Source of the DNA: Solirubrobacterales bacterium
GTDB taxonomy: Bacteria; Actinomycetota; Thermoleophilia; Solirubrobacterales; 70-9
Direction: 5' to 3'
DNA: 58,275 nucleotides
Assembly: GCA_036276995.1 (NCBI GenBank)
Contig: DASUNU010000088.1
Span: 1-58,275, forward strand
In this document: piece after piece, positions 8,230 through 10,020 of the stretch
Position numbering within the stretch: position 1 is the stretch's first letter
Layout: every line of letters begins with the position of its first letter
Made by a program: the position numbers and the translations under genes
The notes under the pieces: model-generated
The model's database searches: none
Told to the model about the DNA's origin: nothing
What the model saw: only the letters and a program-made list of their open reading frames with translations

Positions 8230-9927
8230 TCACGCTCCCTCCAGGCCGAGGCTGCGCACCCCTTGGTCGAGCACCGTCCGCGCCACCCGCTCGACCTCGG
8301 GCGAGCGCTCGTCCTCGCGGTACCAGCGGGCGAAGTGGGAGACGTAGCGGGCCAGCGGGATCACGTCGAGGCTCTCGACCGAGCTGCGCAGGTGGCGGCG
8401 GTGCAGCTCCGACTGGACGACCGCGAAGCGGTAGTCGGCGTCGGCGGCCGCTGCCCCGTCGAGCGCCGCGCTGCCGTCATGCGCCTGCGCCCGCGCCAGG
8501 TCCCAGCCGAGGCTCCCCTTCTCCTCGCGCAGCAGTTTCTCCGGCTCGAAGTCGACCCGCTTCGAGGTCGGCTGCAGGAGGAAGTAGGCGAGCGCGATCC
8601 GGGCCGGCAGCCGCTCCCCCTGCGGGTGCCGGCGGCGCACCTCAGCGCGCTCCGGGTCGGCCTCGATCTCGCGCTCCAGCCACTCGGCGAGGTCGTCGAC
8701 CAGCAGCGCCCCTTCCTTGCTCGAGGTGATCGAGGTGCGGTCGCGGGCGACCATGCCGTGGAAGACGTCGTAGGTCGGCGGGCCGCCGCCCTTGGCGCTG
8801 CCGTTGCCGTTGCCGTTGACGACCCCGAGCTCGTCGATCAGCTGGCGCCGGCAGGTGACGTGGGAGACCCACTCGTTGCCGCAGACCTGCAGCGAGATGA
8901 AGTCGTCGAGCTCCGGCGCCGCGGCCCAGTAGGCGAGCGCCCGCATGTGCTGGGTCGGGAGGCCGTCGGAGCGGACCAGCGGCATCTCCTCCAGCTCCTC
9001 GCGTTCGGTCTCGTACATCACCATGTCGTCGCCGTAGCGCTTGGTCAGGGTGCCCTCGCTGAGCCCTTTATTGGCCAGCTCCAGCACCTCGGGCAGGAAG
9101 TCGGACTCGAAGATCACCCGGTCGAAGGCGATCCCGAGCCGGGTCAGCGTCTTGCGCTGACCGGAGATCACCCAGGCGCGCGTCTTCGACCACAGTTCCA
9201 GCGCTTCCTGGTCGCCGCTGAGCACCCGCAGCATCAGCTCGTCGGCCTTGTCGTTGTACATCGAGGACTCGCGCGCGACCGAGTCTTCGGCGCCGTCGTC
9301 GGCGTCGCGGCCGCCGACGATGCCGGCGGCGCGGCCGGCGGTGACGTACTCGGCGTAGCAGGAGCCGACGAAGTGGTCGCTCTTCTCTTCGCCCTCGGGC
9401 CAGACCTGCTGGTCGCGGCCGCTGTGGACGACCCCGGCCATCGCCTCGCCCATGCTGCGGCCGACGTCGCAGATCAGGCTGCGCCGCTCGACCACGGCCC
9501 CGGCCTGCTCCATCGCGGCGCCGAGCGCGTGGCCGACCGCGAGGTTGCGGAGGTGGCCGATGTGCAGCGCCTTGGTCGTGTTGGCGCCCCAGAAGTAGAC
9601 CGCGTAGCGGCGCTCGGCAGCGAGGTCGGAGTTGTCGCCGGCGTCGCCGGACTCGAGCCGGGCGCCGCGCTCGGCGACCCAGTCGTCGCTGAGCCGCAGC
9701 AGCACTTCCTTGCCGTCCTCGGCGACCCGCTCGACCCAGGGCTCGGCCTCGATCCGCGCCAGCGCCGCGCGCGAATCCTCGTCCTCGCGCCAGCCCGGCA
9801 CCCGCGGGACCAGCATCAGGTCGAAATCGTCACGCGGGCGGAAGGGTGAGCGGGCCGACCAGAGCGCCTTCTCCCCCTGAACCTCGCCGTCCTCGATGTA
9901 GTCGAAAATGTTCATCGCATAGCCCAT
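8230..9927 (-). CDS. argS: Arginine--tRNA ligase-like class I aminoacyl-tRNA synthetase (divergent; possibly a paralog)
   Basis: 565 aa. ANTTKALHIGHLRNLAVGHAL matches the ArgRS HIGH region (E. coli MHVGHLRSTIIGD). ICDVGRSMG matches the ArgRS INDxGxQ block. GMVARDRTSITSSKEGALLVDDL resembles the MSTR-type loop. Full N-terminal and C-terminal domain lengths are present. The stop lies 1 nt before the pabAB start. Confidence 0.7.
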   Translation of the reverse strand: MGYAMNIFDYIEDGEVQGEKALWSARSPFRPRDDFDLMLVPRVPGWREDEDSRAALARIEAEPWVERVAEDGKEVLLRLSDDWVAERGARLESGDAGDNSDLAAERRYAVYFWGANTTKALHIGHLRNLAVGHALGAAMEQAGAVVERRSLICDVGRSMGEAMAGVVHSGRDQQVWPEGEEKSDHFVGSCYAEYVTAGRAAGIVGGRDADDGAEDSVARESSMYNDKADELMLRVLSGDQEALELWSKTRAWVISGQRKTLTRLGIAFDRVIFESDFLPEVLELANKGLSEGTLTKRYGDDMVMYETEREELEEMPLVRSDGLPTQHMRALAYWAAAPELDDFISLQVCGNEWVSHVTCRRQLIDELGVVNGNGNGSAKGGGPPTYDVFHGMVARDRTSITSSKEGALLVDDLAEWLEREIEADPERAEVRRRHPQGERLPARIALAYFLLQPTSKRVDFEPEKLLREEKGSLGWDLARAQAHDGSAALDGAAAADADYRFAVVQSELHRRHLRSSVESLDVIPLARYVSHFARWYREDERSPEVERVARTVLDQGVRSLGLEGA

Positions 9928-9947
9928 TCGTAGTCCCCATTTACGAA

Positions 9948-10020
9948 TGCACCAGCCGGGGCTCGAACCCGGATCTCCGGCTTACAACGCCGACCCTTTA
10001 ACCGATTAAGGCACTGGTGC
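9948..10020 (-). tRNA. tRNA, anticodon UGU (Thr) with atypical D-stem and position 32
   Basis: Reverse complement is GCACCAG-TG-CCTT-AATCGGTTA-AAGG-G-TCGGC-GTTGTAA-GCCGG-AGAT-CCGGG-TTCGAGC-CCCGG-CTGGTGC-A. Perfect 7-bp acceptor stem, A14, G18G19, A21 and a TTCGAGC T-loop. G1-C72/C2-G71 plus G35U36 fit Thr identity. C10-G25 and G32 are unusual. No encoded CCA. Confidence 0.8.

Follow-up and report, generated by a model that had tools for sequence, protein, structure and literature searches.

A tRNA gene co-inherited with an ArgRS-like paralog at the head of a putative biosynthetic operon in uncultured Solirubrobacterales

In several described systems, a tRNA gene or a relative of an aminoacyl-tRNA synthetase (aaRS) serves a specialised task. 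A non-proteinogenic tRNA-Gly of Staphylococcus is used by FemXAB in cell-wall synthesis, and the pyl genes combine a tRNA and its synthetase with amino-acid biosynthesis. Among the biosynthetic enzymes that resemble aaRSs, the MetRS-like/cupin hydrazine synthetases work together with a lysine N6-hydroxylase (PMC11705231), and arginyl-tRNA synthetase (ArgRS) itself belongs to the few synthetases that require tRNA for the activation of their amino acid (PMC2034488). The present analysis concerns a locus in which an atypical tRNA gene immediately precedes a gene encoding an ArgRS-like protein. The locus is located on contig DASUNU010000088.1 (positions 1 to 58,275) of the genome assembly GCA_036276995.1 from a Solirubrobacterales bacterium, and this whole stretch of 58,275 nucleotides (nt) is referred to as the window.

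Judged from the sequence comparisons described below, the tRNA and the ArgRS-like protein are probably a dedicated pair that acts outside translation and feeds a small-molecule pathway. According to the reading that we prefer, with a rough probability of 0.6, this private tRNA would serve as cofactor or carrier for a repurposed ArgRS that handles an amino acid other than arginine, possibly a lysine-derived one.

The tRNA gene and its co-inheritance with the ArgRS-like gene

The tRNA gene was detected by ARAGORN at positions 9948 to 10020 on the reverse strand. It comprises 73 nt with the anticodon UGU in the loop GUUGUAA and reached 63.4 bits with the Rfam tRNA model RF00005, thereby passing the gathering cut-off of 29. 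The predicted cloverleaf is characterised by G9, C10-G25, G26, G32, a variable loop of 4 nt and A73; every one of the odd features that had been listed in an earlier reading of the DNA (C10-G25, G32 and UGU; here called the sequence-only reading) is present. A 3'-terminal CCA is not encoded, which is nothing special since only one tRNA gene of this genome encodes it. The ArgRS-like open reading frame (ORF) of 565 amino acids (aa) extends on the same strand from 9927 to 8230, and the spacer between the 3' end of the tRNA and this ATG (positions 9928 to 9947, reverse strand) consists of 20 nt that include the motif GGGGA, so the arrangement noticed earlier agrees with both the ARAGORN and the ORF coordinates. 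Going by the relatives, an alternative ATG at 9915 (MNIFDY...) may be the true start of the gene, in which case the spacer would amount to 32 nt. The gap between the tRNA and the ArgRS-like start codon ranges from 7 to 45 nt in related loci, the shortest of these distances being found in one genus.

The distribution of both genes was analysed at two levels. A homologue search with one genome per species yielded 80 loci, all from uncultured Solirubrobacterales and with protein identities of 66-89%, and the tRNA was found directly upstream of the ArgRS-like gene in all 79 informative loci, the 80th ending inside the gene. Within the family, 201 evenly sampled genomes were analysed, and the enzyme, counted at an identity of at least 58%, was detected in 18 of them, from three genera. 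A covariance model identified tRNAs of the private type in exactly these 18 carriers and in none of the 183 other genomes, in which the best matches were ordinary tRNA-Lys(UUU) genes, and the tRNA directly precedes the gene in 18 of 18 carriers, at a distance of 1-45 nt. The enzyme was absent from 120 other genomes drawn from the whole class, and within the family it is carried by only 4 of 58 genera, by which an order-wide housekeeping gene was ruled out; more distant relatives of the protein do occur elsewhere in the Solirubrobacterales. On these comparative grounds, the adjacency of the two genes is not a product of chance, and the tRNA is to be regarded as the enzyme's own co-inherited partner, a point absent from the sequence-only reading.

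A covariation analysis was based on 15 distinct tRNA sequences, one of them more distant. Two-sided compensatory changes were observed in 7 of the 21 base pairs, 99% of the cells of the alignment pair, and the cloverleaf is kept. The acceptor stem, the D-arm and the T-arm are near-invariant across the three genera, with covariation in neighbouring pairs; the acceptor pairs 2 to 5 do not vary at all, and a G-U wobble at pair 1 is confined to locus L092, which encodes a relative with 51% protein identity.

The full operon is kept in the three genera, designated g1 (the genus of the window), g98 and g87, despite their differing anticodon loops. In g1 the loop reads GUUGUAA, once AUUGUAA, and presents UGU. 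Four genomes of g98 contain the loop CUUAAAA with the anticodon UAA, and three others of this genus the loop UUUGUAA with UGU and a mismatched closing pair. In two genomes of g87 the loop is represented by the six bases CGCAAG, in which a C-G pair closes a GCAA tetraloop, leaving no anticodon. The L092 locus contains a homologous tRNA on the opposite strand, 270 nt upstream, with the loop UUUAGCG, corresponding to UAG with C37, and its operon is reduced to the ArgRS-like gene and the genes for a deacetylase-like enzyme and an N-hydroxylase. Since the anticodon was lost in g87 with the operon intact, the tRNA does not appear to be needed for decoding, and since the L092 copy sits on the opposite strand, it apparently acts in trans and not as a mere leader of the mRNA.

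With respect to the identity of the tRNA, the ordinary threonine tRNAs of the same genome (UGU, CGU and GGU) share an acceptor beginning with GCC(C/G), an AGCUCA D-arm and U73. Contig C136 encodes the canonical tRNA-Thr(UGU), which is like its CGU and GGU isoacceptors; none of the three is similar to the window tRNA. An ordinary tRNA-Thr(UGU) was likewise present elsewhere in ten of ten closed chromosomes of relatives. The ordinary tRNAs nearest to the window tRNA are tRNA-Lys(UUU) and tRNA-Arg(UCU), the former being the closest. The assignment to threonine that had been derived from the UGU anticodon was therefore abandoned, because the anticodon loop varies within the same operon while the body is near-invariant, orthologues in sister genera carrying UAA or a GNRA tetraloop. 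The gene is also not the sole standard tRNA-Thr(UGU) of its genome, in view of the copy on C136, and its position ahead of the ArgRS-like gene is conserved. As far as the comparison of genomes can tell, the tRNA is supernumerary and not a tRNA-Thr, and a role in decoding is unlikely.

These findings bear directly on an expansion of the genetic code or a regulated mistranslation, comparable to the pyl or ProRSx systems, at rare codons such as ACA in g1 and UUA in part of g98. The gene order of tRNA, synthetase and biosynthetic genes mirrors pylT-pylS-pylBCD, the elements of the tRNA elbow are canonical, the anticodons found correspond to some of the least used codons, and in ProRSx and tRNAProX an aaRS isoform is indeed found beside a tRNA with a swapped anticodon (PMC10404621). 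Such a function is nevertheless very improbable, considering that a complete operon in g87 contains a GCAA tetraloop tRNA without an anticodon, that C37 is present in L092 and that a canonical tRNA-Thr(UGU) is kept in all genomes tested. Moreover, no signal of ACA recoding was obtained from a small sample of 72 ACA codons (10 genes, 80 loci), which align with Thr (49%) and Ser (28%) in the same way as the ordinary threonine codon ACT. Also, tRNAs that decode do not usually have G32 or A32 in the anticodon loop. The sense codons that correspond to the observed anticodons are the second, fourth and seventh rarest, which fits selection against interference with translation.

The ArgRS-like protein and its substrate pocket

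The protein encoded at 8230 to 9927 is classified as an ArgRS-like class I ligase paralog. It matched PF00750 with 28.4 bits and TIGR00456 with 86.4 bits, the latter value not reaching the argS cut-off of 261.65. The sequence match is weak and limited to the ArgRS catalytic domain, and a DALR domain was not recognised by Pfam; the likeness to ArgRS that had been noticed earlier is accordingly real but weak by sequence. A canonical argS gene with a DALR domain is located elsewhere in the same genome (C99:31226-32845, 414.7 bits), and one canonical argS each was detected in ten of ten relatives tested, irrespective of whether they carry the paralog. In a maximum-likelihood tree of 10 canonical ArgRS and 21 ArgRS-like proteins, both groups were separated with a support of 100/100 by branches of 3.7 and 1.7 changes per site, in total about 5.4, and the ArgRS-like protein does not group with the orthologous ArgRS of related taxa. 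The proposal of a divergent paralog distinct from the housekeeping argS is thus borne out by a second argS gene in the genome and by the separate clade, the protein being neither the sole argS product nor a member of the housekeeping clade.

The AlphaFold model of the ArgRS-like protein, built on 54 homologues, reached a pLDDT of 88.6 and a pTM of 0.90. When this model was compared with the PDB by means of Foldseek, the top 20 matches were all ArgRS structures that aligned over the whole chain (TMq 0.54-0.74), with yeast ArgRS in complex with tRNA-Arg (1F7U, TMq 0.74) as the best match, at an identity to the solved ArgRS structures of only 14-18%. Since the match covers the full chain, the N- and C-terminal tRNA-binding domains are predicted to be retained; in the model, an N-terminal tRNA-elbow domain, the Rossmann core and a helical C-terminal domain are kept.

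Individual residues were mapped by a profile alignment to yeast ArgRS (1BS2/1F7U). The HIGH motif is kept at H122-H125, as is the asparagine that binds the alpha-amino group (yeast N153, here N116), and the motif TSSKEG occupies the KMSKS position, at which yeast ArgRS contains MSTRKG. The residues that bind the arginine side chain in yeast ArgRS are replaced (E148 by Y111, Y347 by Q326 and D351 by A330). HIGH and the SSK loop are invariant across the ArgRS-like family. The pocket positions, which do not vary within the clade, differ between the ArgRS-like subfamilies, a pattern that, at the level of sequence, fits different substrates for each subfamily. By fold and residues, as modelled and aligned, the protein is an ArgRS derivative with a rebuilt arginine pocket. 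The present labels of such genes, 'arginine--tRNA ligase' and 'tRNA-Thr' or 'tRNA-Leu', are probably wrong, and annotators should be warned accordingly.

A self-resistance copy of ArgRS, protecting the producer against an inhibitor of ArgRS that the operon would make, is hardly credible on this evidence. Resistant aaRS copies encoded in gene clusters are common (PMC5388404), and natural ArgRS inhibitors are the subject of a 2025 preprint (10.64898/2025.12.02.691738), but the arginine-binding residues are replaced here, and the protein falls far short of the argS cut-off and belongs to a separate, very long branch. A resistant ArgRS would furthermore use the normal set of tRNA-Arg and have no need of a private tRNA with a non-arginine anticodon.

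Transcription, operon context and proposed function

A promoter-like element was recognised at positions 10071 to 10099 on the reverse strand, approximately 50 nt 5' of the tRNA and directly after the stop codon of an upstream ABC-transporter gene. It consists of TTGTCG as -35 hexamer (10099-10094), a spacer of 17 nt and TGT-TATGCT with the -10 hexamer at 10076-10071. An element of the form TTGnnn-N16-18-TAnnnT, ending 49-57 nt before the tRNA, is present in all 78 loci whose upstream sequence is long enough, and this block is kept in the alignment of the loci despite differing upstream genes. The copy in the window scores 8/12, which is too low for a strict consensus search, and strict sigma-70 and terminator scans of positions 9700 to 10300 gave no match. 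Neither a promoter nor a terminator was found between the tRNA and the ArgRS-like ORF (9928-9947). The earlier conclusion that this gap leaves no room for an independent promoter holds for either start codon, and a tRNA-mRNA co-transcript, likewise proposed before, becomes the natural reading because of the missing promoter in the gap and the conserved promoter-like element 5' of the tRNA. Co-transcription followed by tRNA processing is well supported by this comparison of loci: a single promoter about 50 nt 5' of the tRNA would drive the co-transcript, and RNase P cleavage, 3' trimming and addition of CCA would release the free tRNA, so that the mRNA of the operon would begin with only a very short leader.

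This arrangement admits a reading in which the tRNA matters for expression only, either as a processing or stability signal or as a spare tRNA, with the ArgRS-like protein acting as a tRNA-independent, ATP-dependent ligase comparable to MshC, which derives from CysRS. The start codon lies so close behind the tRNA that processing would set the 5' end of the mRNA, and a processing signal would also tolerate the loss of the anticodon. MshC, which appeared among the weaker Foldseek matches, and the MetRS-like domains of the hydrazine synthetases are related to class I aaRSs and need no tRNA (PMC11705231). We regard this reading as quite unlikely, however, since the tRNA is kept in L092 at a distance of 270 nt on the other strand, the constraint on its sequence across three genera exceeds the needs of RNase P, both tRNA-binding domains of ArgRS are retained in the model, and the tRNA coincides exactly with the enzyme (18 of 18 carriers, 0 of 183 other genomes).

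The ArgRS-like ORF heads a coupled operon on the reverse strand that encodes a PabAB protein, a GNAT protein, a deacetylase-like enzyme, a CM_2 protein, a cytochrome P450, an NbtG-like hydroxylase and a PQQ-type propeller. The second gene (6072 to 8228) starts 1 nt past the ArgRS-like stop codon, is conserved in the operon and specifies a PabA-PabB fusion of the aminodeoxychorismate synthase type (Pfam GATase, Anth_synt_I_N and Chorismate_bind; TIGR00553 pabB with 350 bits, above the cut-off). It is followed by the gene for a single-domain GNAT protein of 155 aa (5608 to 6075; Pfam Acetyltransf_1/7/10) that is conserved in L007 and L095-L101, and by the gene for an arginase/deacetylase-fold enzyme (4649 to 5611; Hist_deacetyl), whose nearest relatives are acetylpolyamine amidohydrolases and HDAC6 and which stays with the ArgRS-like gene even in L092. 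The next gene (4335 to 4652) encodes an AroQ-type chorismate-mutase-like protein of 105 aa (CM_2; best NCBIfam model TIGR01803 for chorismate-mutase-like proteins, below the cut-off), which may be either an aminodeoxychorismate mutase or a PchB-like lyase. A 473-aa ORF at 4335-5756 on the same strand was rejected as one fused protein, as this region comprises two genes in different frames with an overlap of 4 nt. The P450 gene (2998 to 4338) comes next, and the adjacent gene (1658 to 3004) encodes a flavin-dependent N-hydroxylase resembling the L-lysine N6-monooxygenase NbtG (Pfam Lys_Orn_oxgnase; full-length match to PDB entry 4D7E, 'L-Lys monooxygenase', with an E value of 3.6e-65) that also accompanies the ArgRS-like genes of L092 and L088. 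The PQQ-type beta-propeller (77 to 1624) is the last conserved gene of the block.

Upstream of the tRNA, a cupin (Cupin_2, 11780-12403, forward strand) was considered as a partner of the hydrazine-synthetase type and discarded, as L006 and L007 lack it at the equivalent position; it lies inside an amino-acid ABC transporter cluster and is probably outside the system. At 26350-26550 of the window, tRNA-Pro(GGG) and tRNA-Gly(UCC) genes form a divergent pair. Many related loci contain this pair as well, some kilobases upstream of the operon, which points to a conserved gene order across the surrounding region.

For the proposed function, the following steps are envisaged. The paralog may have inherited the dependence of ArgRS on tRNA for amino-acid activation, and the private tRNA would be maintained because of this inheritance. 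The enzyme would recognise the tRNA via the near-invariant acceptor stem, D-arm and T-arm, leaving the anticodon loop free to change, and would esterify an amino acid other than arginine onto it. The resulting aminoacyl-tRNA, or else a tRNA-dependent adenylate, would then provide the downstream pathway with an activated aminoacyl group. The NbtG-like hydroxylase, the deacetylase-like partner, the tRNA-Lys-like body and the aminomutase-type neighbours of a distant paralog in cultured species hint weakly that either the amino acid or its acceptor is derived from lysine or N6-hydroxylysine, with an aromatic unit derived from 4-aminodeoxychorismate in this clade. The sequence-only reading had suggested a transfer of an aminoacyl group to a pathway intermediate, perhaps with the downstream GNAT protein. 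Its general part, a tRNA-linked aminoacyl chemistry outside translation, remains the best reading of the locus; the GNAT protein exists as well, the only one of the operon, but nothing marks it as an aminoacyl-tRNA transferase, since by its domain matches it is of the single-domain acetyltransferase type, probably no double GNAT of the Fem/VlmA kind, and looks paired with the deacetylase-like enzyme.

In a more far-reaching version, which is tentative and rather doubtful, the two genes would constitute a natural orthogonal pair that stays out of translation altogether. A non-proteinogenic amino acid made by the neighbouring enzymes, of the N6-hydroxylysine or aminophenylalanine type, would be loaded on the private tRNA, the tRNA would function as an RNA carrier in the manner of an acyl or peptidyl carrier protein while enzymes of the operon assemble the product or pass it on, and several such pairs would exist across the Solirubrobacterales.

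A number of observations weigh against the dedicated, non-translational pair. The carriers of this operon are all uncultured metagenome-assembled genomes. UGU is constant in all 79 loci of g1, which could reflect a constraint, imposed either by recognition through the enzyme or by some decoding. The canonical G18, G19 and T-loop provide no bar to the use of the tRNA body by EF-Tu and the ribosome, and the g1 tRNA contains G1-C72, C2-G71, G35 and U36, the full set of identity elements of bacterial ThrRS, so that it may be charged by this enzyme. Furthermore, no aminoacyl-tRNA-dependent transferase of the Fem/VlmA/PacB, L/F-transferase, CDPS or PEARL type is recognisable in the operon; a candidate for the step after charging would be the ArgRS-like enzyme itself, in the manner of SbzA.

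A transferase of the latter kind forms the basis of another explanation, according to which the private tRNA receives its amino acid from LysRS, ThrRS or another housekeeping synthetase and the ArgRS-like protein moves the aminoacyl group to an intermediate, for example to the O or N of N6-hydroxylysine. The similarity of the tRNA body to tRNA-Lys(UUU), the ThrRS elements of the g1 tRNA and the constant presence of a lysine N-hydroxylase are compatible with it. The anticodon is a main identity element for bacterial LysRS and ThrRS. The shifts to UAA, UAG and a tetraloop within the same operon make a single housekeeping synthetase for all of these tRNAs implausible, and the HIGH motif and SSK loop, which serve adenylate chemistry, are invariant in the family. 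Precedents are provided by SbzA, an IleRS-like protein that uses Ile-tRNA as the donor of Ile for a small molecule and is itself poor at charging tRNA (PMC6331615), and by VlmA, which joins seryl-tRNA to a hydroxylamine (PMC11705231). On balance, this explanation is unlikely.

Related loci and comparison with described systems

In line with a dedicated pair, more distant ArgRS-like subfamilies also have unusual tRNA genes beside them, whose anticodons are different (L089, L099 and L100). Large tRNAs of the type GCGCCCG...CGGGCG(C/U) with an insertion in the D-loop were observed at L089:2085-2293, L094:13657-13859, L090:12836-c.13050 (reverse strand) and L100:c.4600-4806; the insertion comprises up to approximately 140 nt, as read in L089 and L094, and the anticodons are UUU, CCU and UCU. 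These tRNAs adjoin a second ArgRS-like subfamily, the one in L089 ending 30 nt before the ATG, and this combination looks like a second type of enzyme-tRNA pair. Proteins of 586-657 aa are encoded in unrelated loci beside ArgRS-like genes and insert-bearing tRNAs (L089:32-2005, L090:13103-15052 and L094:11806-13566, all on the reverse strand). They contain an Anticodon_1 domain together with weak matches to LeuRS editing or class Ia catalytic domains and may represent another synthetase paralog, of a second kind, within these systems. In L099, which originates from another genus, an ordinary-looking tRNA(UCU) with G73 (6723-6795, reverse strand) is located 183 nt upstream, on the same strand, of an ArgRS-like gene whose product shows 39% identity; this tRNA may be the normal tRNA-Arg(UCU) of its genome.

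In the loci L093 and L094 (5700-9833) of the cultured species Conexibacter woesei and Baekduia alba, a distant paralog is divergent from an operon that encodes a pair of the lysine/ornithine aminomutase type (Lys-AminoMut_A and OAM_dimer/B12-binding), a 362-aa protein and an M14 peptidase. ARAGORN reported no tRNA beside either of these paralogs, nor did the covariance model detect one in the Conexibacter locus; in the Baekduia locus it recovered the tRNA with the D-loop insert at a distance of about 2 kb from the 3' end of the paralog gene.

The window's own genome contains a further tRNA of this kind at C204:19499-19595, comprising 96 nt with the acceptor GCGCCCG/CGGGCGC, a hairpin insert of about 24 nt in the D-loop and the loop CUUUCAA (UUC), which ARAGORN miscalled as Pro(ggg) with an intron. 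It was recovered in full length (86-100% identity) in six of six tested genomes (L150-L155) of the three operon-bearing genera and was not found in full length in four genomes of other genera. Additional ARAGORN calls at C53:17137-17209 and C217:542-614 (73 nt, Leu-gag and Gly-gcc), C83:16293-16382 (90 nt, Trp-cca) and C131:15434-15520 (type undetermined) probably are false positives in GC-rich coding sequence.

No published description of an ArgRS-like/private-tRNA pair was found in the open literature on ArgRS-like paralogs, atypical tRNAs of gene clusters and tRNAs or aaRSs of Thermoleophilia. The novelty lies in the combination: an enzyme derived from ArgRS has a rebuilt pocket, and the tRNA that co-evolves with it has a decaying anticodon. 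If the proposed function is true, the locus would represent, to our knowledge, the first case of a bacterial tRNA kept purely as the partner of a repurposed synthetase in metabolism, with an anticodon that has decayed to a tetraloop. It would show how a tRNA-dependent aaRS drags its tRNA along when recruited to a new job, and would add the logic of an RNA carrier to natural-product biosynthesis. In that case, naturally orthogonal class I synthetase-tRNA pairs with non-standard pockets would also be of interest for genetic-code engineering.

The described systems share individual features with this locus. The extra tRNA-Gly genes of staphylococci likewise provide tRNAs for a non-ribosomal use of aminoacyl esters, but these tRNAs keep a glycine anticodon, are charged by the housekeeping GlyRS and evade EF-Tu by changes in the T- and D-loops, whereas the tRNA described here has a canonical elbow, a degenerating anticodon and a dedicated synthetase paralog. 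In the pylT-pylS-pylBCD operon, as in the present one, a private tRNA is located directly 5' of a synthetase gene that is followed by genes for a lysine-derived amino acid. However, tRNAPyl keeps the anticodon CUA and decodes UAG, and PylRS belongs to class II, in contrast to the variable or absent anticodon without a detectable recoding signal and the class I, ArgRS-derived enzyme found here. The ProRSx/tRNAProX pair of Streptomyces and Kitasatospora also consists of an aaRS isoform beside a tRNA in which anticodon and body do not match (PMC10404621). ProRSx is still a ProRS, and tRNAProX decodes and mistranslates with a standard amino acid (PMC10404621); the present locus differs in its rebuilt pocket, in the biosynthetic genes that follow and in the complete lack of an anticodon in one genus.

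With SbzA, VlmL/VlmA and the hydrazine synthetases, the locus has in common an aaRS-derived enzyme within a biosynthetic operon, which in this case is of class I, and a possible O- or N-aminoacylation of a hydroxylamine, and with the hydrazine pathways also a co-located flavin-dependent lysine N-hydroxylase, here of the NbtG-like type. These systems use housekeeping tRNAs or none at all, and the enzyme of the present locus descends from ArgRS and not from MetRS, IleRS or SerRS. The hydrazine synthetases differ further in that the present operon contains neither a fused nor a conserved cupin. When compared with ArgRS itself (TIGR00456; PDB 1F7U, 1IQ0 and 4OBY), the protein is alike in its whole-chain fold, in HIGH and in the asparagine that binds the alpha-amino group, and the need of tRNA for activation (PMC2034488) is probably common to both. 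It differs from ArgRS in the replaced guanidinium ligands, in its presence as a second copy and in a partner tRNA that does not carry an arginine anticodon.

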